Part shown: positions 12,613 to 28,869 of the stretch, one piece after another
How positions within the stretch are numbered: the first letter of the stretch is position 1
Layout of the letters: each line of letters begins with the position of its first letter
Assembly (NCBI GenBank): GCA_029859185.1
Contig: JAOUDR010000001.1
Span: forward strand, 1 to 31,747
Length of the DNA stretch: 31,747 bases
Direction of reading: 5' to 3'
DNA from: Gemmatimonadota bacterium
Lineage (GTDB): Bacteria; Gemmatimonadota; Gemmatimonadetes; Gemmatimonadales; GWC2-71-9
Position numbers and translations under genes: made by a program
Notes under the pieces: model-generated
What the model was told of the DNA's origin: nothing
The model's input: only the letters and a program-made list of their open reading frames with translations
Database searches by the model: none

Positions 12613-13413
12613 ATGAGGTTCCCAGCCCTCATCCTCTTGTTGCCGACCGTCGCCGTGGCCCAGGCGCCGCCCGAGCTCGCCGCGGAGCGGGCAGACTTTG
12701 CCCGTTGGCTCCAGACGGCGCCGGGTTCACCCTTCGCCGCCATCTATCATCAGCCGTTCGCCGACGACCTCGTGTTCGGCCCAGGCGGCGAGCCGGGCCT
12801 CGAGGGTCTCCCGTCGGCCACGCTGAGCCAGGGGCTGCTGCGGCTCTCGCTCGAGAGCGCGGACGGCAGCCGCGGCGTGCCGCGGAACCGGGATGTGTCG
12901 CTCGGAGCGGAGTGGCGTCTCCGTGTCACCGGCGACCGCGGGCGCAGCGTCGTGACCGTGTTCGGCCCTGTGCGCGAGCCGAAGATCCCCGGCTGGTATG
13001 CGTATGACAGCACGGTGGTGGTGGAGGGGACGCTGGAGCCGCCCCCCAAGCGGGCGTCACGCCGCATGCTCGGGCTGGACGGGGTCGAGGTCGAGGGATC
13101 GCACGCGGGCACGTGGGTCGGCCACGTGGCGGACCAGGACGTGCGCCTGACGGTCTACCGCATGCCCGAGCCGGGCACCGCGGAAGCGGATCTCATGATC
13201 TTTTTCCGGGACGCCACGAATGGCCGGGGTACCTACCCCGCCGGCCGGTTTCTCGCCCTGCGGCCGCAGGGCGGCAACCGCTACCGCGCGGACTTCAATC
13301 GTGCGCGGAACCCCTTCTGTGCCTACAACGGGATCTTCCCCTGCCCCGCGCAGTGGCCGGGCAACGCCATCGACTCGGCCGTGGAGGCCGGTGAACGGTA
13401 CCTGAGCCCATGA
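12613..13413 (+). CDS. DUF1684 domain-containing exported protein
   Basis: Signal peptide; FFRDATNGRGTYPAGRFL and DFNRARNPFCAY...CP...N...VEAGE are hallmark DUF1684 motifs. Confidence 0.88.
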   Translation: MRFPALILLLPTVAVAQAPPELAAERADFARWLQTAPGSPFAAIYHQPFADDLVFGPGGEPGLEGLPSATLSQGLLRLSLESADGSRGVPRNRDVSLGAEWRLRVTGDRGRSVVTVFGPVREPKIPGWYAYDSTVVVEGTLEPPPKRASRRMLGLDGVEVEGSHAGTWVGHVADQDVRLTVYRMPEPGTAEADLMIFFRDATNGRGTYPAGRFLALRPQGGNRYRADFNRARNPFCAYNGIFPCPAQWPGNAIDSAVEAGERYLSP

Positions 13414-14630
13414 CACGGTTCACGCGCGGCGCCGGGCTGCTCGCGATCGCCGGAGCCGTGGCGGCACCTGCGGCACGCGCCCAGGACGCGCGGGCAGCGG
13501 TTGCCGGCGAGTGGCGCGCGGCGCTCGACCTCGCCGGCGGCGAGTTGCGCTTCCGTCTGCAACTCGACGGTGCCGAGGGCGTGCTCTGCAATGCCGGAAC
13601 CTGTCAGCCGTTCTCGGCGGTCACCGGAGTTCCCGGTGCCGCCGACTCGGTGGTCCTCGACATGGCGGACTACGCGGCGGCCATCCGGGCACGTGTCTTG
13701 GGCGACTCACTGGTGGGGTTCTACCGGAACGTGGGGAACCGCGGGCCGCGTACCATCCCATTCCGTGCCTCACGGGGCACCTGGCCGGCGGAGCCGCCGT
13801 CAGCGGCACTGATTGGAACCTGGGATGCCACGTTCAATCCGCTCGAACGGCCGAGTCCGCGGGTGATCGAGTTGCGCGCCACGGAGCGCGGCCTCGAGGG
13901 AACGATCATCTCGAACAGCGGTGACTACGGGGTCTTCTGGGGCGACGCCGCCGAGGGGTCGTTCGACATGGCCCATTTCGACGGCTCGTTCGTGTACATG
14001 CTGACCGGTACGCTCGACGGTGACACGCTCCGCGGCACGTTCCACGCCGGCCTGCGCACCCAGACACCCTTCGTGGCGGTGCGCTCCACGGGTCGCCCGC
14101 ACCTCACGCCGCCCACCGAGGTCGTGCGCGCCGACACGACCGGGCCGTTCACGTTCGCGTTTCCGAGCGTGGATGGCACCATGGTCTCGAGCGATGACCC
14201 GCGGTTTCGCGACAAGGTCGTCATCGTGGAGATCTTCGGCACCTGGTGTCCCACCTGCCACGAATCCGCGCCCGCGATGGTCGCCCTCTACGAACGCTAC
14301 CGTGATCGCGGCCTCGAGATCGTCGGGATGGCTTACGAGGTCACGGGCGACTCCGCGGTGGATGGCGCGATCGTGCGCCGCTATCGGGACAAGTTCGGGA
14401 TCACGTTCCCGCTGCTGCTCGCCGGCGTGAACGACGGCACGAGTGCCGGCGAGACCCAGCCACAGCTCGCGGGCCCCATCGCGTTTCCCACGACGATCTT
14501 CCTGGACCGCACGGGGCGCGTGCGGAAAGTCCACGCCGGGTTCTACGGACCCGCGACGGGGACCGCGCACGAAGCGTTGTTGCGGGATTTCAGGGAGACG
14601 GTGGAGGGACTGCTGGCGGAAGGCCGCTAA
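13410..14630 (+). CDS. Exported TlpA-family thiol-disulfide oxidoreductase with N-terminal beta-rich domains
   Basis: Signal peptide ARA/Q; FRDKVVIVEIFGTWCPTC active site; cis-Pro motif IAFPTTIFLDRTGRV. ATGA overlap with DUF1684. Confidence 0.9.
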   Translation: MTRFTRGAGLLAIAGAVAAPAARAQDARAAVAGEWRAALDLAGGELRFRLQLDGAEGVLCNAGTCQPFSAVTGVPGAADSVVLDMADYAAAIRARVLGDSLVGFYRNVGNRGPRTIPFRASRGTWPAEPPSAALIGTWDATFNPLERPSPRVIELRATERGLEGTIISNSGDYGVFWGDAAEGSFDMAHFDGSFVYMLTGTLDGDTLRGTFHAGLRTQTPFVAVRSTGRPHLTPPTEVVRADTTGPFTFAFPSVDGTMVSSDDPRFRDKVVIVEIFGTWCPTCHESAPAMVALYERYRDRGLEIVGMAYEVTGDSAVDGAIVRRYRDKFGITFPLLLAGVNDGTSAGETQPQLAGPIAFPTTIFLDRTGRVRKVHAGFYGPATGTAHEALLRDFRETVEGLLAEGR

Positions 14631-14742: not shown

Positions 14743-15522
14743 TCAGCCCGCGCCGCCGGCCGGCGCCTCGACCTCCATGCCTTTCCCCAACGTCGCCCGG
14801 ATCAGGTCGCGGTTGAGCCGAGCGATGAAGTCGAGACTGATGCCCTTGGGGCACGCCGCCTCGCACGAGCCGTGATTCGTGCAGCTGCCGAAGCCTTCTT
14901 CATCCATCGTCCCCACCATGTCGAGCACGCGCGAGAACCGCTCCGGCTGGCCCTGGGGTAGCAGTCCGAGATGCGAGATCTTGGCCGCGGTGAACAGCAT
15001 GGCACTGCCGTTGGGACACGCCGCGACGCAGGCACCGCACCCGATACAGGCCGCGGCGTCCATCGCGGAGTCGGCGTCACGCTTGGGAATCGGCACCGCG
15101 TTCGCGTCCGGCGCCGCGCCGGTCCGGATCGAGATGTAGCCACCGGCCTGAATGATCCGGTCGAACGCGCTCCGGTCCACTACGAGGTCCTTCAGTACCG
15201 GGAACGCCCTCGCCCGCCACGGCTCCAGCCAGATGTCGTCGCCGTCCTTGAAGCTCCGCATGTGGAGCTGGCAGGCGGTGACTCGCTGCACCGGACCGTG
15301 CGGGCGCCCGTTGATCACCATGCCGCACGAACCACAGATGCCTTCCCGGCAGTCGTGCTCGAAGGCGATGGGATCCTTCCCCTGCTCGATCAGCCGGTTG
15401 TTCAACACGTCGAGCATTTCCAGGAACGACATGTGTTCGTCGGCGTCCGGCATATCGTACCGCTCGAACCGCCCGGATGGAGATCCGCTCGCCTGACGCC
15501 AGACGTGGAGAGTGAGGCGCAT
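14743..15522 (-). CDS. sdhB: Succinate dehydrogenase/fumarate reductase iron-sulfur subunit
   Basis: [10 protein letters not shown]...[12 protein letters not shown] and [12 protein letters not shown] clusters; ATG overlaps the sdhA TAA. Confidence 0.97.
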
Positions 15523-17435
15523 TACTTGTAACTCCGCGTCGCGAGGTGTACATACTCGAAGGCCAGCGGCTCCTTGTGGAGCGCGGGTGTCGCATTCGGA
15601 CCCTGGTACGCCCACGCAGCCACGTGCGCGAACTGCTCGTCGTCGCGCTTGGCCTCGCCGTCGGGCGTCTGGTGCTCTTCGCGGAAATGGCCGCCGCAGG
15701 ACTCGTCCCGCCCGAGCGCGTCGAGGCACATCAATTCGGCGAACTCGAGGAAGTCGGCCACGCGACCCGCCTTTTCTAACTCCTGATTGAGCTCCAGCCC
15801 GCTGCCCGGCACACGCACATCCGTCCAGAACTCCTCGCGGATCCGCGGGATCTCGGCCAGTGCCCGCTTGAGTCCGGTGGCGTTGCGCGCCATGCCGCAC
15901 TCGTTCCACATCACGCGGCCCAACTCGCGATGGAAGACATCCACGGTCCGCTTGCCATTCACCCCGAGGAGCCGCTGCGTGGTTTCCGCCGCCTGCGCTT
16001 CCGCCGCCTTGGCTTCCGGGACGTCAGCCGCGACCGATCCGGCCTTGTTCGACGTGAGGTACTCGCCGATCGTATACGGCAGCACGAAGTAGCCGTCGGC
16101 CAGCCCCTGCATCAGCGCGCTCGCGCCCAGCCGGTTGGCGCCGTGGTCCGAAAAATTGGCCTCGCCGATCACGAACAACCCCGGGAGCGTGCTCATGAGG
16201 TTGTAGTCCACCCAGAGTCCCCCCATCGTGTAGTGGGGTGCCGGGTAGATCCGCATCGGAACCTGATAGGGGTTCTCTCCCGTGATCTGCTGATACATGT
16301 CGAACAGGTTGCCGTACCGCTCGGCAATGACGTGCTGCCCCAGGCGCTGAATGGCATCCTGAAAATCCAGGTACACGCCGTTCTTCTCGACCCCCACCCC
16401 CTGCCCGTTGTCCACCATCTCCTTGGCCCGCCGCGACGACACGTCGCGCGGCGACAGGTTCCCGAAGCTGGGGTAGATGCGCTCCAGGTAGTAGTCGCGC
16501 TCGGCGTCAGGGATGTCCTTGGCCGCCCGGGTGTCGCCAGGCTGTTGTGGCACCCAGATGCGCCCGTCGTTCCGCAGCGACTCGCTCATCAGGGTGAGCT
16601 TGGACTGATAGTCGCCCGCCTGCGGAATGCAGGTGGGGTGAATCTGCGTGAAACACGGGTTGGCGAACGCCGCGCCGCGCCGATAGGCACGCCACGTGGC
16701 CGTGACGTTGCAGGCCTTGGCGTTGGTCGAGAGGAAGAAGACGTTGCTGTAGCCGCCCGTGCCCAGCGCCACGGCGTTCGCCATGTGCGAGCTGATCTTC
16801 CCCGTCACCATGTCCCGCACGACGATGCCGCGCGCGTGTCCGTCCACGACGATCACGTCCAGCATCTCGGAGCGCGGGTACATGGTCACCGTGCCGGCCG
16901 CGATCTGTCGCTCGAGCGCCGAGTACGCACCGAGCAGGAGTTGCTGACCCGTCTGGCCGCGCGCGTAGAACGTCCGCGACACCTGCGCCCCGCCGAACGA
17001 GCGGTTGGCGAGCAGGCCGCCGTACTCGCGGGCGAACGGCACGCCCTGCGCCACGCACTGGTCGATGATGTTCAGGCTCACCTGCGCGAGCCGGTAGACG
17101 TTCGCTTCGCGCGCGCGGAAGTCGCCACCCTTCACGGTGTCGTAGAACAGACGGTAGATGCTGTCGCCGTCGTTCTGGTAGTTTTTGGCGGCGTTGATCC
17201 CGCCCTGCGCGGCAATGCTGTGCGCGCGGCGCGGGCTGTCGTGGTACGTGAAGCACTTGACCTTGTAGCCCAGCTCGCCCAGCGTCGCGGCCGCGGCGGC
17301 ACCCGCAAGGCCGGACCCCACGACGATGATCTCGTATTTCCGCTTGTTGGCGGGGTTCACGAGCTTCAGATCGAAGCGGTGTTTGTCCCACTTCTGCTCG
17401 ATCGGCCCATCAGGTACTCGAGAGCGCAGTTCCAT
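15522..17435 (-). CDS. sdhA: Succinate dehydrogenase/fumarate reductase flavoprotein subunit
   Basis: [13 protein letters not shown] motif, [54 protein letters not shown]. Start trimmed to ATG 17435 (637 aa). Confidence 0.97.
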
Positions 17436-17446
17436 CTCCCCTGCCC

Positions 17447-18124
17447 TCACTTCAGCACGCCGAGCTGCACGGCAACCGGCACCGTCGCGAACCCAACGAG
17501 CAGGACGATAGCGAGGACGGCCGCGATTCCGCGCCGCCACGAGTTGTACTTCGGGTGGTTGAGTCCGAGAGTCTGCAATGCGCTCCACGTGCCATGATAC
17601 AGGTGCAGCGCGAGGACGAACACGGCAATGACGTACGCGGCGGCGGCCGTCGTGCTCTCGAACCCCACCACCAAGTTGTGGTACGCGTCCCCCGGGATGA
17701 AGTCCGGGTTTACGTTCCCGATGGTGAGATGCATGAGGTGATATACGACGTAGCCGCCAATCAGCAGCCCACCCCAGCGCATGGTGAGCGAGGCCGCGGT
17801 GGTTTGGAGATACGGGGTCTTTTCGTACCCGATCGGGCGCGCGCGATTCGACACCAGCCAGAGCTGAATACCGAAGAACGCGTGGATCAGCACCGAGCCC
17901 AGGAGGACGATCCGGAACAGCCACAGCGCCTGTCCGTGTCCGAAGAACGGCGCACCGAGCGCGCGCAGCGCTTCAGCGTAGGTGTTGAAGTACTCCGCCC
18001 CCATGAACGCCTTGAGATTGCCGATCATGTGGACGACCACGAAGCCGAGCAAGACGAAGCCCGTGATCGCCATCAGCACCTTCTTGCCGACGGTCGAACG
18101 ATAGAAGGCCGAGACCCGAGCCAT
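17447..18124 (-). CDS. sdhC: Succinate dehydrogenase cytochrome b558 membrane anchor
   Basis: [34 protein letters not shown]...QTLG; five TM segments; first gene of sdhCAB. Confidence 0.95.
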
Positions 18125-24864: not shown

Positions 24865-25332
24865 CTACCTCCCGGCCTCCACCCCCTGCCGACCTCGAGC
24901 GGCAAGCAGTCGATCGACGGAGAGGGCTCCGCCGCCGCCAATGAACAGAGCGAGCGCCATGGCGATGGCGAGGATGTGGAACTCGAACCCCTCGCCGGAC
25001 AACTGGCCGCCCCAGTTCATGAAGAACCCAACCCGCCAGTGAACCAGCGTTACGGCTCCCAGCATGACCATCGCGATGCCCGCGGCCGCGACCCGGCTCA
25101 TGAACCCGGCGATCAGCGCGAGGGCCCCAAGGGACTCCGCCCCGATGACGAGCACCGTCACGATGGCCGGAATGCCCCAGGTCTGCTGGAAGAAGCCGAT
25201 GGTGCCACCGGGTCCGGAGCCCCCAAACCAGCCCAGGAGCTTCTGGGCGCCGTGCGGGAAGATCACGACGCCGAGCCCGATTCGCAGGATCGCCAGCGTG
25301 AGGTCGTTCGTCGTCTGCATGAGCCGTTTCAT
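24865..25332 (-). CDS. DoxX family membrane protein
   Basis: LAILRIGLG..IFPHGAQKLLGWFGGSG, HWRVGFFMNW, GEGFEFHILA, GGGALSVD; GGGAG RBS. Confidence 0.93.
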   Translation of the reverse strand: MKRLMQTTNDLTLAILRIGLGVVIFPHGAQKLLGWFGGSGPGGTIGFFQQTWGIPAIVTVLVIGAESLGALALIAGFMSRVAAAGIAMVMLGAVTLVHWRVGFFMNWGGQLSGEGFEFHILAIAMALALFIGGGGALSVDRLLAARGRQGVEAGR

Positions 25333-25359: not shown

Positions 25360-25851
25360 TTACGAATCGCGGTCGGCGTGTGCCGCTCGCACCGCGTCGA
25401 GCAGCCCGATGAGCCGCTGCTGATCACGCTTGGCCAGACCACGCACCGCGGTGTGATCGGCGGCATCCACCGGTTCGTCGAGTCGCTTCATGAGCGCGAG
25501 CCCCTCGGCAGTGATGACGCAGTGGATCTGCCGCCGGTCCGCAGAGGTGCGGCGGCGATGGACCCAACCCCGCACCTCGAGGCGGTCAATCATCCGTGTG
25601 ATCCCCGGGGCGCGCTGCACCATGCGTTCGGCCACCTCGAGCGTGGGCAGCCCACTCGGCCCGGCCCCACGGAGGATGCGCAGCACGTTGTACTGCTGAA
25701 GGGTCACCCCCTCCCGCTCCACGACTTCACCGTAATACCGCCGGACCAGGTCCGCGGTCCGGAATAGGGCAACCACCGCCTCCTGCCCGATGGACTGGAA
25801 CGGGCGGGTCTGGCGGATCTCCTGCTGGATCGCACTGGCGCGTCGTGTCAT
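25360..25851 (-). CDS. MarR family transcriptional regulator
   Basis: GVTLQQYNVLRILRGA, PGITRMIDRLEVRGWV.R...DRR...ITAEG. Confidence 0.93.
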   Translation of the reverse strand: MTRRASAIQQEIRQTRPFQSIGQEAVVALFRTADLVRRYYGEVVEREGVTLQQYNVLRILRGAGPSGLPTLEVAERMVQRAPGITRMIDRLEVRGWVHRRRTSADRRQIHCVITAEGLALMKRLDEPVDAADHTAVRGLAKRDQQRLIGLLDAVRAAHADRDS

Positions 25852-25873
25852 GGCGTGATAGGATTAATGGACA

Positions 25874-25893
25874 ATAGTTGACATGTCAAGCAT
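25874..25893. promoter_or_regulatory. Palindromic operator ATAGTTGACATGTCAAGCAT with TTGACA on both strands
   Basis: Perfect 12-bp core TTGACATGTCAA at 25878-25889 in an AT-rich patch upstream of marR and of the divergent cytochrome gene. Confidence 0.75.
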
Positions 25894-25996
25894 TTGTCGG
25901 GAACCTCCGGCAACACCGGACGCGCTGATTCGGTCCGGTACAGCCCGCTGGAAGATCCCGTGCCGCCATCCTGCACCTCAGCCCCAGGAGAACGAC

Positions 25997-26446
25997 ATGC
26001 AACCACGCCTCGTGCTCACACTCGCCCTGAGCTGCTTGCTCACGGCCTGTCCCGGAGACGGAACGGGCCTGGACGAGAACGGCAACCCCCTGGGCCCACC
26101 TGGACCCGACGAGGGTGTGACCCTCTCCAGTGACGTGCAGCCGATCTTCACGGCGAGCTGCGCGTTTACCGATTGCCATGCCGGCAACAACCCGGTGCTG
26201 GGTCAGAACCTCTCCGCCGGCCAGGCGTACGGGAGCATCGTGAACGTCAACTCTCAGGAAGTCCCCGCCCTCAAGCGCGTGCTGCCGCTCTTCCCAGACT
26301 CCAGCTACCTCGTGCACAAGATCCAAGGAACCCAGGGTTCCGTGGGAGGACTGGGGGGGCGCATGCCGCTCGGTGGCGCCGCGCTCACTGACGAAGAGAT
26401 CGCCACTATCCGGGCATGGATCACGGCCGGTGCTCCAAACAACTGA
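25997..26446 (+). CDS. Putative monoheme c-type cytochrome lipoprotein with CX4CH motif (planctomycete cytochrome C-like domain)
   Basis: AGGAG RBS; lipobox LTA/C18; DVQPIF..SCAFTDCH; PDSSYLVHKI; candidate distal ligand RMP; LTDEEIATIRAWITAGA. Confidence 0.8.
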   Translation: MQPRLVLTLALSCLLTACPGDGTGLDENGNPLGPPGPDEGVTLSSDVQPIFTASCAFTDCHAGNNPVLGQNLSAGQAYGSIVNVNSQEVPALKRVLPLFPDSSYLVHKIQGTQGSVGGLGGRMPLGGAALTDEEIATIRAWITAGAPNN

Positions 26447-26457
26447 CGGAGGTCACG

Positions 26458-27519
26458 ATGCGAACGCTGCTGCTTCCCCTCGGCCTCCTGGTCGCCACCA
26501 CCCCCGCGGCCGCCGAGCCGTACCTGGCACTCCGGACCGGGCTCAAATGCTCGTCATGTCACACGAACCTGACGGGCGGTGGGAACCGCAACACCTACGG
26601 TGGCATTTTCTCGCAGACGCAGCTGCCAATGAGGCCCGGCACGGTCGTCAGCAAGAACGTCACGGATTTCCTCCAGATCGGCTGGGACCTGCGGGTCGAA
26701 GCGTCGGGGACGTTCAAGGCGTCCACGCCACGCACCAGCATCGGACTCGACGTCGCGCAGCTGTACGCCGCCGCCGAGCTGCTGGAGAACCGGCTGGTGC
26801 TCTACATCGACCAGACGGTCGGTCCGGACCGCGCCGTCGCGCGCGAGGCCTTCGGCATGGTGAAGCGCCTCCCTGGGGAGGGCTACATCAAGGCCGGGAA
26901 GTTCCTGCTCCCCTACGGCCTCCGATTACAGGATGATGCCGAGTACATCCGCGAACGAACGGGATTCTCTTACAAGACACCGGATCAAGGCGTCGAGGTT
27001 GGACTCGAGCCGGGTCCGCTGGCGATCGCCGTCGCCCTGACCAACGGCAGCACGGGTGCCGTCGAGAACGACAACGGCAAGCAGGTCACCTCGAGCGCCG
27101 CCGTGGTCTTCCGTCAGTTCCGGCTCGGGGCCTCGGCCTCGCGCAACGACGGAACGGATCAACGCCGGGAAGTCGTGGGCGGCTTCGGCGGCTTCAACGT
27201 CGGCCCACTGGTCCTCATGGGAGAGCTGGACTACGTGCGGGACAAGCCCGTGCAGGGTGACACGGTACGCCAACTCATGGCCTACGGTGAGGCGGACTGG
27301 TTGCTCATACGCGGGCTCAACGCCAAGGTCACGTACGGGTGGCTCGACCCCAACATGGACGTCGCCGAAAACGAGCGGATTCGCGCCCGGTTCGGGCTCG
27401 AGTTCTTCCCGACTCCGTTCCTGCGGTTCGCGGGCTTCTACGGCCTGTTCAAGGACATCCCGCAGGCGACGACAACCAACCTGGACCGTTGGAGCGTCGA
27501 GGCGCACGTGTTGTTCTGA
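26458..27519 (+). CDS. Outer-membrane beta-barrel with an N-terminal CXXCH heme motif (cytochrome-porin fusion, Cyc2-like)
   Basis: GGAGG RBS; signal peptide PAAA/E; EPYLALRTGLKCSSCH (motif at 26548-26562); amphipathic beta-strand patterns; terminal Phe (SVEAHVLF). Confidence 0.82.
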   Translation: MRTLLLPLGLLVATTPAAAEPYLALRTGLKCSSCHTNLTGGGNRNTYGGIFSQTQLPMRPGTVVSKNVTDFLQIGWDLRVEASGTFKASTPRTSIGLDVAQLYAAAELLENRLVLYIDQTVGPDRAVAREAFGMVKRLPGEGYIKAGKFLLPYGLRLQDDAEYIRERTGFSYKTPDQGVEVGLEPGPLAIAVALTNGSTGAVENDNGKQVTSSAAVVFRQFRLGASASRNDGTDQRREVVGGFGGFNVGPLVLMGELDYVRDKPVQGDTVRQLMAYGEADWLLIRGLNAKVTYGWLDPNMDVAENERIRARFGLEFFPTPFLRFAGFYGLFKDIPQATTTNLDRWSVEAHVLF

Positions 27520-27521
27520 GG

Positions 27522-27592
27522 CGATGGCCGACAGCCGGTAGCCGAACGCTCTTGCACTGTTCGGCTATCGGCCGTCGGCCATCGGCTATCGG
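27522..27592. repeat. Heptamer-array hairpin between convergent genes
   Basis: 27522-27547 pairs with 27559-27584 at 24 of 26 positions; the extra TCGGCTA unit holds the amidohydrolase stop. Confidence 0.9.
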
Positions 27593-28869
27593 TTCAGGTA
27601 GTCCAGCAGCACCGCCGTCATGACCCGAATGCCAACCGGAATCGCGGAGTCGTCGGCCTGGAAGGTCGGCGTGTGGTGATCGCCGGAGACGGTTCCCGGC
27701 TTCTGCACCCCGAGACGATAGAAGAACCCGGGCACCTCGTTGGCGAACAGCGAGAAGTCCTCGCCCACCATGGCCGGCTCGAGTTCGACGACATTGTCGT
27801 CACCGAGCACGCGCGCGATCGTGGGCACGGTGCGCTGCGTCAGGGCGACGTCGTTGATCACGGCAGGGGAACCGCGCTGGTAGGTGATCTCGTACGTCCC
27901 GCCACCCGCCGAAGTGATCCCGGCCACGATCTCCTGCATGCGGCGCTCCACGATGTCCTGGGCCTCCGTGGAGTAGGTGCGCACGGTGCCTTCGAGCTTC
28001 ACTTCCGCCGGGATGATGTTGAACCGCTCGCCCCCGTGAATCCTGCCCACGGTCACCACACTCGGCGCCAGCGGCGAGAGGTTGCGCGAGCGGATCGTCT
28101 GGAGCCCCATCACGACCTGCGACGCCATGACGACCGGATCCACGCTCAGGTGGGGTGACGCCCCGTGGGCTTGTCGGCCCCGGACGGTGATCCAGAACTG
28201 ATCCACGGCCGCAAGCGCGGGTCCCGGCGTGTACCCGACGACTCCCACGTCCAGCGACGCCATGGTGTGCAACCCGAACACGGCACTGGGCCGCGGGTCG
28301 GCGAACGCCCCCTCTTCAAGCATGAGGGACGCGCCGCCCTCTTCCCCCGGCGGCGGGCCTTCCTCGGCCGGCTGGAAGATGAACAGCACCGTCCCCGGCA
28401 GGTCGGCGCGCATGCCGGCCAGCACCTCGGCCACACCAAGCTGCACGGCGACATGCACATCGTGGCCGCACGCGTGCATCACACCAACTTCCTGCCCCAG
28501 GTAGGTGGTGCGGACGGTCGATTTGAACGGGTAGGGCGTGTCCTCCGTTACCGGGAGGGCATCCATGTCCGCCCGCACCGCGACCACGGGGCCCGGCCGG
28601 CCGCCGCGGAGCACCCCCACGACACCAGTATGCGCGATGTCGGTGCGCACCTCGTCCAGGCCAAGCCCGCGCAAGCGCGAAGCAACGACCCTCGCCGTCT
28701 CCACCTCGCGGTTTCCCAGCTCAGGGTTTTGATGCAGGCGGTGCCGGATGTCCACCATGGCGGGCGCCACCTCACGTACCGCCGCCGCGACACGGGCATC
28801 CCGTTCCTGGCCGATCACGACGGTGGTGACTCCACCGAGCATCACTACCGAGAGCATCAGGACACGCAT
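27586..28869 (-). CDS. Exported M20D family amidohydrolase
   Basis: HRLHQNPELGNRE, RADMDALP, MHACGHD, FQPAEEG, GLHT, GEDF, HHTP; signal peptide. The start could be 28875 instead. Confidence 0.95.
   Translation of the reverse strand: MRVLMLSVVMLGGVTTVVIGQERDARVAAAVREVAPAMVDIRHRLHQNPELGNREVETARVVASRLRGLGLDEVRTDIAHTGVVGVLRGGRPGPVVAVRADMDALPVTEDTPYPFKSTVRTTYLGQEVGVMHACGHDVHVAVQLGVAEVLAGMRADLPGTVLFIFQPAEEGPPPGEEGGASLMLEEGAFADPRPSAVFGLHTMASLDVGVVGYTPGPALAAVDQFWITVRGRQAHGASPHLSVDPVVMASQVVMGLQTIRSRNLSPLAPSVVTVGRIHGGERFNIIPAEVKLEGTVRTYSTEAQDIVERRMQEIVAGITSAGGGTYEITYQRGSPAVINDVALTQRTVPTIARVLGDDNVVELEPAMVGEDFSLFANEVPGFFYRLGVQKPGTVSGDHHTPTFQADDSAIPVGIRVMTAVLLDYLNR

Follow-up and report, generated by a model that had tools for sequence, protein, structure and literature searches.

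Cyc2 is the main genetic marker from which microbial Fe(II) oxidation is inferred in genomes and metagenomes, and it is defined by a signal peptide, one CXXCH haem motif and a 16-strand barrel (PMC8406198). The locus described here raises the question of whether a shorter gene with this same layout encodes a divergent Cyc2, an ordinary porin, or a member of a separate family of electron-transferring pores. The gene, here termed P0001, lies on the forward strand at 26458-27519 of the window, i.e. the whole 31,747-nucleotide stretch analysed (Gemmatimonadota bacterium, assembly GCA_029859185.1, contig JAOUDR010000001.1), and was proposed in an initial annotation to represent a divergent sister family of Cyc2 which the standard models of that protein might overlook. 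The preferred reading, to which we assign a probability of about 60%, is that P0001 combines a monohaem c-type cytochrome and a 16-strand porin in one chain, that it belongs to a sister family of Cyc2, and that it forms a two-protein outer-membrane electron conduit with the product of the gene directly upstream, P0002.

P0001 is an uninterrupted open reading frame encoding a 353-residue precursor, as short as the initial annotation had reported. Residues 1-19 (26458..26514, +) form a Sec-type signal peptide, MRTLLLPLGLLVATTPAAA, with a basic residue, a hydrophobic core and A-A-A before Glu20, the cleavage site having been placed by inspection rather than by a predictor. The mature protein begins with EPYLALRTGLKCSSCH, in which the first cysteine, Cys31 of the precursor, falls at mature position 12, again as first described. 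Residues 20-55 (26515..26622, +) make up the putative N-terminal haem-binding segment, recognised by its conservation in 234 sequences, with CXXCH at 26548-26562; the stretch directly after the motif reads TNLTGGGNRNTYG and was correctly noted to differ from that of Cyc2. The remainder, residues 72-353 (26671..27516, +), is a 16-strand porin beta-barrel ending in a C-terminal Phe, assigned from structure prediction and Foldseek.

The AlphaFold2 model, computed from a 30-sequence alignment and without haem, shows a 16-strand barrel over residues 72-352, with a mean predicted local distance difference test score (pLDDT) of 72 and a predicted template modelling score (pTM) of 0.74. The first ~55 residues have low pLDDT, as expected for a haem-binding segment modelled without its haem. 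Foldseek matched the model to OprP (2o4v) and OprO (4rjw) at a template modelling score (TM) of 0.66, and to PorB, Omp32, VhChiP and P2 at 0.6-0.65; Cyc2 has previously been modelled on OprO and OprP templates (PMC8406198). Many conserved charged residues occur in the barrel, including a block at ~145-186 that holds the only long helix of the model (160-168). Among the AFDB clusters, generic porins were retrieved together with two "cytochrome c domain-containing protein" entries matching the barrel region, a result that was not decisive. In Pfam and NCBIfam scans P0001 was above threshold in no family, and the same held for distant family members and for three canonical Cyc2 proteins; Porin_4 (PF13609) reached 21.7 bits against a gathering threshold of 27, over residues 154-294 only, and a few homologues have a precomputed match to it. 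A PDB sequence-profile search with the family gave no significant match, and the ESM Atlas yielded nothing beyond unnamed clusters and clusters labelled "putative cytochrome c domain".

P0001 is nevertheless part of a large family, hereafter the haem-porin family, all of it unnamed. A word-indexed search retrieved 496 clusters at 90% identity, the named ones being nearly all "hypothetical proteins" of Gemmatimonadota metagenome-assembled genomes (MAGs), and an exhaustive phmmer search of 1.84 billion representatives of 50%-identity clusters retrieved 172 at E<=1e-30 and 1081 at E<=0.001, which puts the family at 1081 clusters or more at that identity. In 30 close homologues C31, C34, H35, E20, P21, T27, G28, L29, N37, G40-G42 and R44 are invariant, and among the best 150 of the 50%-identity representatives CXXCH occurs at positions 23-59, within the same block, in 115 of 116 full-length sequences. 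Across 234 aligned sequences, conservation is 100% for C31, C34, H35, G40, G42 and R44, 99% for P21, 97% for G41, 95% for E20 and N37, and 94% for G28. The resulting family signature around the haem motif is E-P-Y-L-A-x-R-x-G-x-x-C-x-x-C-H-x-N-x-T/S-G-G-G-x-R; its core, C-x-x-C-H-x4-G-x-G-x-R, is found in all 234 members, of which 232 have exactly one CXXCH and 203 terminate in Phe. The occurrence of CXXCH in the family is far beyond chance. The only other conserved His/Met is His350, on the last strand and three residues from the C-terminus, which is His in 75% of the 234 sequences and in 105/114 distant representatives, though some members of the close clade have Gln or Arg instead; it is a candidate distal haem ligand.

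These data bear on the simplest alternative, an ordinary solute porin in which CXXCH would be a metal site or a disulfide-based plug or gate, with neither haem nor electron transfer. The barrel does match general and phosphate porins, sharing fold and strand number with OprP 2o4v, OprO 4rjw, PorB and Omp32 (Pfam Porin_4 and Porin_O_P; TM 0.6-0.66), the sub-threshold Porin_4 match points the same way, and the haem-free model is uninformative on the N-terminal segment. However, phosphate-selective and general 16-strand porins lack the haem segment of P0001, and their sequence similarity to it is below the family cut-off. Moreover, the histidine of CXXCH, which a disulfide does not require, is present in 234/234 sequences, the segment shares ancestry with the haem segment of Cyc2, for which haem binding is shown by experiment (PMC8406198), and the conserved neighbour is itself assigned as a cytochrome. 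We consider a solute porin very improbable. The reading as a plain non-haem porin was rejected on the invariant histidine and the homology to the Cyc2 haem segment, and P0001 is not nested in a non-haem porin family.

For the comparison with Cyc2, a reference set was assembled with a degenerate DNA pattern for P-x-F-A-R-[QK]-[TY]-x3-C-x-x-C-H, applied to one genome per prokaryotic species. It yielded 119 loci in Acidithiobacillus, Mariprofundus and other Zetaproteobacteria, Chlorobiaceae, Nitrospira, Acidobacteriota, Bacteroidota and Gemmatimonadota, from which 90 complete proteins of at least 365 amino acids (aa) were used; being chosen by the PxFAR motif, the set may under-sample motif-poor Cluster 3 outliers such as Cyt572. 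The N-terminus of Cyc2 from an Acidithiobacillus sp. MAG is LPTFARQTGWSCATCH, with the P-x-x-x-A/x...T-G-x-x-C-x-x-C-H register seen in P0001, and the Acidithiobacillus Cyc2 protein reads LPTFARQTGWSCATCHTSYPQL. The Acidithiobacillus sequence given in the initial annotation has this register and is very nearly correct.

Profile-profile alignment with hhalign of the haem-porin family (A3, 64 sequences) against Cyc2 (A2, 40 sequences) gave a probability of 98.9% and an E value of 2.7e-17 over 328 collinear columns. The family segment A-E-P-Y-L-A-V-R-T-G..C..CH aligns without gaps to A-I-P-A-F-A-R-K-Y-G..C..CH of Cyc2; a 3-residue gap then follows CXXCH, where Cyc2 has P-x-L and the family T-G-G-G, before a common [FY]-G-x-x-[FY]. 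Because porin barrels can inflate profile scores, the comparison was split into modules: the N-terminal segments alone gave 97.1% (E 5e-11) and the barrels alone 95.9% (E 5e-9), while all controls (N-terminal segment against barrel, reversed columns, column shuffles) stayed at 7% or less. Single sequences bridge the two groups in both directions, the family member P0265 scoring 53 bits on the Cyc2 hidden Markov model (HMM) over both modules, and a Cyc2-motif protein (L116) 42.6 bits on the family HMM over its full length. The haem-porin family is, on these alignments, a remote homologue of Cyc2 within the same superfamily. The architecture is likewise shared with A. ferrooxidans Cyc2, Mariprofundus Cyc2PV-1, Ghiorsea Cyc2TAG1 and Leptospirillum Cyt572 (clusters 1-3, McAllister/Keffer): a signal peptide, one CXXCH whose first Cys lies near mature position 12, an upstream register of A(-12), P(-10), hydrophobic(-8), A(-7), basic(-5), T/Y(-4), G(-3), and a 16-strand OprP/OprO-like barrel with a C-terminal aromatic residue.

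Homology does not amount to membership. Keffer et al. described A-x-P-x-F-A-R-[Q/K]-[T/Y] upstream of CXXCH as "unique to Cyc2" and used it as an inclusion filter, placed P-x-L four residues downstream of CXXCH, and reported a FeGenie length filter with a minimum of 365 aa (PMC8406198). P-x-F-A-R-[QK]-[TY] occurs in none of the 234 haem-porin members, P0001 having A-E-P-Y-L-A-L-R-T instead, with the Phe replaced by Leu and the Arg moved by one position. P-x-L is found at offsets +3 to +10 after CXXCH in 83/90 Cyc2 (60 at the exact offset) and in 0/234 family members, in which N-x-T/S-G-G-G-x-R takes its place with the 3-residue insertion; the G-x-G-x-R signature is conversely found in 0/90 Cyc2. 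This replacement of the Cyc2 motifs by a different invariant signature suggests a different haem environment. The family is also shorter, with a median of 362 aa against 450 aa in Cyc2 and 130/234 members below 365 aa, and its barrel is much better conserved (mean column identity of 32%, against 20%).

Scores and trees draw the same line. Cyc2 proteins scored 132-410 bits on their own HMM and haem-porins 254-525 bits on theirs, compared with cross-scores of 2-53 bits, P0001 itself reaching 22.0 bits on the HMM of the 90 Cyc2. A maximum-likelihood tree was built for both groups together, with 122 sequences. Its 62 Cyc2 rows all lay on one side of a branch with a Shimodaira-Hasegawa-like approximate likelihood ratio test (SH-aLRT) support of 100, and P0001 belonged to a set of 50 rows, all from the family, with 98% support. 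The branches deepest in the family (P0265, P0250, P0257) have an intermediate look upstream, A-[LV]-P-R-F-A-A-R-T-G, and N-P-T-G-G-G-M-R downstream. The tree and the scores thus support a family separate from Cyc2 and not nested in it, and the sister-family relationship first proposed is borne out. P0001 as a member of Cyc2 proper was tried and rejected on the defining motifs, which it lacks.

A related alternative would make P0001 simply a divergent Cyc2, for instance of the long-branch Cluster 3, that would likewise oxidise Fe(II) and need no family of its own. The common architecture and register and the highly significant profile match would fit it, as would the high divergence of Cluster 3 (PMC8406198). 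Against this stand the complete mutual exclusion of the motifs (0/234 with either Cyc2 motif, 0/90 Cyc2 with G-x-G-x-R), the large gap in HMM scores, the fully supported split, a conserved partner gene peculiar to the family, and the presence of both types in one genome; we regard it as highly unlikely. The suggestion that standard Cyc2 models may overlook P0001 is supported by the published filters: at 353 aa it is below the FeGenie minimum, and it has no PxFAR[QK][TY]. The published recognition rules, motif filter and length filter alike, exclude the haem-porin family, and the database entries seen are annotated "hypothetical protein".

The partner gene, P0002 (25997..26446, +), is the first of a two-gene cassette, ends 11 nt before the start of P0001 and is proposed to be co-transcribed with it. 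From its lipobox, haem motif and synteny it is assigned as a lipoprotein monohaem c-type cytochrome of 149 aa. Its haem motif is the non-canonical C-x4-C-H form CAFTDCH (26159..26179, +), found in the same column in homologues. In 15 homologues the Cys18 of its lipobox (LTAC), Cys55, Cys60, His61 and Met123-Pro124 are invariant, and the C-terminal W-I-x-x-G-A amphipathic helix is invariant or nearly so. This partner column reads CA[FLIV][ST]xCH in 17 Gemmatimonadota loci and canonical C-x-x-C-H in 8, which suggests that both forms occupy the same haem site; the two clades are a natural pair for the study of variant haem attachment. Cytochrome c maturation genes are present in the genome, in which P0002 is single-copy. 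One haem motif with its His, a downstream Met-Pro and the C-terminal amphipathic helix ending in W-I-x-x-G-A are points that P0002 shares with class-I c-type cytochromes (of the PSCyt1, cytochrome c6 and FoxE kind), from which P0002 differs by its lipoprotein anchor and, in one clade, by the C-x4-C-H variant. Database matches were all to c-type cytochromes and all below curated thresholds: Cytochrome_CBB3 in 6/15 members (best member E 2.8e-5) and PSCyt1 in 2/15, with P0002 itself at 16.8 bits on Cytochrome_CBB3 against a cut-off of 27, and PDB profile matches to cytochrome c6 (E 1.2e-4), the cytochrome domain of hydrazine synthase alpha (E 6.9e-4) and FoxE (E 0.014), besides a weak match to PccH. 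The AlphaFold2 model of P0002 (mean pLDDT 56) was too poor for a fold search.

The pairing of the two genes is conserved. The haem-porin family occupies 27 places in a sample of 301 Gemmatimonadota genomes, 25 of them with upstream DNA, and in 23 of these 25 the partner lies directly upstream, the two exceptions having a two-component system or an unrelated membrane protein there. The partner domain is also upstream in five distant loci (121-267 bits), including one in a Hydrocarboniphaga MAG (L157), one with a tandem double partner domain (L158) and one with CX4CH. Only in the deep bridge subgroup (L127:1542-4029, L128; P0265, 415 aa) does a cupredoxin-like lipoprotein replace the partner upstream, with a dihaem cytochrome c downstream, a layout that recalls the cyc2-cyc1...rus logic of Acidithiobacillus. 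A dedicated upstream lipoprotein cytochrome is a feature of the haem-porin family that Cyc2 does not share, and neither a pair of a Cyc2-like protein with a lipoprotein cytochrome nor a TGGG-type variant was found in the literature searched, which does not span all journals. What is new here is a sister family of the same fused cytochrome-porin design, marked by a separate invariant signature in the haem pocket, by higher conservation of the pore and by a partner of its own; the contrast of TGGG-R with the PxL pocket of Cyc2 offers a natural experiment on the tuning of one-haem pores.

As a working mechanism, the N-terminal segment of P0001 would hold a covalent haem, through Cys31 and Cys34 with His35 as proximal ligand, at or inside the periplasmic mouth of the barrel, where the haem of Cyc2 has been modelled (PMC13741234, PMC13692758). 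A small soluble redox species would enter the conserved charged pore and exchange an electron with this haem, and the tethered partner, with putative His61/Met123 ligation, would contact the porin and shuttle the electron between its haem and carriers of the periplasm or inner membrane. The proposed electron-transfer concept is that of MtrCAB, MtoAB and PioAB, in which an outer-membrane barrel and c-type cytochrome(s) are likewise encoded by adjacent genes, and in which a 26-strand barrel sheathes a separate decahaem cytochrome (PMC8406198). P0001/P0002 differ from that kind in having one haem fused to a 16-strand barrel and a monohaem lipoprotein partner too large to thread the pore. Should the haem-porin indeed pass electrons through the outer membrane, environmental surveys underestimate how many organisms can exchange electrons with their surroundings.

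Fe(II)-oxidase activity has been measured for Cyc2 of all three clusters (PMC8406198, PMC13692758), and by homology Fe(II) would be the most likely substrate and inward the most likely direction; for the pair, Fe(II) may be taken as the leading guess by analogy. Another substrate or direction is possible in view of the distinct haem-pocket signature, the much better conserved and charge-rich barrel, the coexisting Cyc2 and the variable, stress-type regulators. One tentative possibility is that the cassette encodes a two-component redox module of the outer membrane that is distinct and widespread, with a substrate unlike that of Cyc2, such as Mn(II) or reduced sulfur or nitrogen species, or with outward flow for reductive metal uptake. 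In that case, many sediment and soil bacteria not deemed iron oxidisers (Gemmatimonadota, some Gammaproteobacteria and Acidobacteriota) would have an unrecognised extracellular electron route, which current iron-gene annotation tools would systematically filter out.

Direction deserves separate consideration. The pair could act as an outward, reductive conduit, in which electrons of the periplasm reach an acceptor outside the cell (such as Fe(III), Mn(IV), humics or ferric chelates), for example to acquire iron by reduction and take up the product through the same pore. A porin with one haem could in principle work either way, and direction is not readable from sequence in the Cyc2 homologues of Gemmatimonadota (PMC11316326); Cyc2 potentials have been measured as low as -130 mV, so that such haems can be low-potential (PMC13692758), and bis-His ligation would favour a low potential were His350 the distal ligand. 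Genes for a TonB-dependent receptor or for PepSY_TM/FMN_bind proteins are found near some loci. On the other hand, these iron-uptake neighbours occur in two loci only and on the opposite strand, roughly one in four of the 234 sequences has Gln or Arg in place of His350, and the characterised relatives, Cyc2 clusters 1-3, are all oxidases. Outward flow is, on balance, unlikely.

Several observations weigh against the preferred reading of P0001/P0002 as a Cyc2-like electron conduit. Both Cyc2 recognition features, PxFAR[QK][TY] and PxL, are replaced by another invariant signature. The genome carrying P0001 (3.75 Mb, 82% complete) already has a canonical Cyc2 of 399 aa on another contig (C239:8712-9914; L120:1507-2706), which reads A-I-P-A-F-A-R-K-Y...C-R-L-C-H-D-P-A-P-K-L, scored 313.6 bits on the A2 profile against 20 bits for P0001 in the same search, and is preceded by a histidine kinase gene and followed by two small class-I cytochrome c genes. 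Among the 26 family-bearing genomes, 13 have Cyc2 and 13 do not, as counted from two tables. The neighbouring regulators vary (MarR/DoxX here; in other loci an extracytoplasmic function (ECF) sigma factor with zf-HC2 anti-sigma, sigma-54 regulators or two-component systems) and none is iron-specific. A complex prediction for the mature haem-porin, two haems and the mature partner gave a score of 0.26 (mark 0.32), which we take as evidence neither way. In favour of the reading, contigs from four RNA libraries match parts of both P0001 and P0002 at 96-100% identity; these matches are weak evidence of transcription and may include DNA carry-over. The canonical Cyc2 in the same genome, taken with the even split of the carriers, points to a distinct rather than redundant role for the haem-porin family.

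The family was present in 26 of the 301 sampled Gemmatimonadota genomes (about 9%), in 20/127 genera, compared with 123/301 for canonical Cyc2, a tally that counts one unpublished genome (G157) as positive. It was not found in 401 sampled genomes of Pseudomonadota, the phylum of Wenzhouxiangella, at E<=1e-20, nor in five Cyc2-bearing genomes of other phyla at E<=1e-10, which indicates that it is rare outside Gemmatimonadota in these samples; named members from elsewhere belong to a Hydrocarboniphaga MAG and to Acidobacteriota. The stretch containing P0001 and P0002 recurs in marine, estuarine and sediment metagenomes.

Within the window, the cassette is flanked upstream by a divergent MarR-family regulator (25360-25851, -; Pfam MarR_2, 9.4e-11), directly adjacent, and then by a divergent gene for a DoxX membrane protein (24865-25332, -; Pfam DoxX, 2.2e-17). 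Neither was seen beside the cassette in the other loci inspected, and both are taken as context only. In three distant lineages, an ECF sigma factor with a zf-HC2 or RskA anti-sigma factor adjoins the cassette (L158:59-2579, L159:208-2655, L125:5153-6534), with an S8 peptidase in two loci, and this arrangement hints at envelope- or redox-stress control. Such neighbours would suit an envelope device for redox stress or detoxification, in which the pair handles a reactive small molecule (peroxide, sulfide/thiosulfate or nitrogen oxides) outside energy metabolism: MarR and DoxX adjoin the cassette here, the anti-sigma factors in L125, L158 and L159 are of zf-HC2 (ZAS-type) or RskA kind, and in the window the cassette stands apart from respiratory genes. 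The neighbourhood is not conserved across loci, however, no peroxidase-like or sulfur-oxidation signatures were found, and the cassettes of relatives sit amid genes for dihaem cytochromes, cupredoxin-like and cytochrome bd-like proteins; a stress device appears improbable.

The extended clusters of these relatives, with dihaem cytochrome c, cupredoxin-like, cytochrome bd-like or Cyc2-like genes, are as expected for an electron-transfer chain. Three genomes (G060, G105 and G086) carry a lower-scoring Cyc2-like gene 3-5 kb from the cassette on the same contig, and in G060 and G105 the gene immediately upstream of the partner encodes a dihaem cytochrome c. In the latter two (L161, G105:C57:1-9000; L162, G060:C8:49000-58600), the Cyc2-like gene (181-194 bits), dihaem cytochrome c, partner and haem-porin fall within ~6 kb on one strand, from which it follows that Cyc2-like and haem-porin cytochrome-porins can share a cluster. 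In a further locus (L124:699-10265, GCA_036679645.1) the cassette is part of a larger redox cluster, in which the partner and the haem-porin are accompanied by a cupredoxin-like protein of 614 aa, a dihaem cytochrome c and additional cytochromes c, together with a cytochrome bd subunit I-like protein of 668 aa and two CarboxypepD_reg proteins.

Downstream, P0001 converges with an M20 peptidase gene, and the interval between them holds a very stable GC-rich hairpin (27519..27588, no strand assigned; -56.2 kcal/mol, z -9.9 against 200 shuffles), which is a candidate bidirectional terminator or else an element of another kind. A scan of 25700-27700 with consensus promoter and terminator patterns gave no match, and the hairpin lacks a T tract. 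The rest of the window is housekeeping in character, encoding SdhAB, UppS, a MacB-type permease, TetR and peptidases. A DUF1684 gene followed by a gene for a 406-aa protein with a C-terminal Redoxin/AhpC-TSA domain occupies 12613-14630 (+), and the SdhA and SdhB-like genes lie at 14743-17924 (-).

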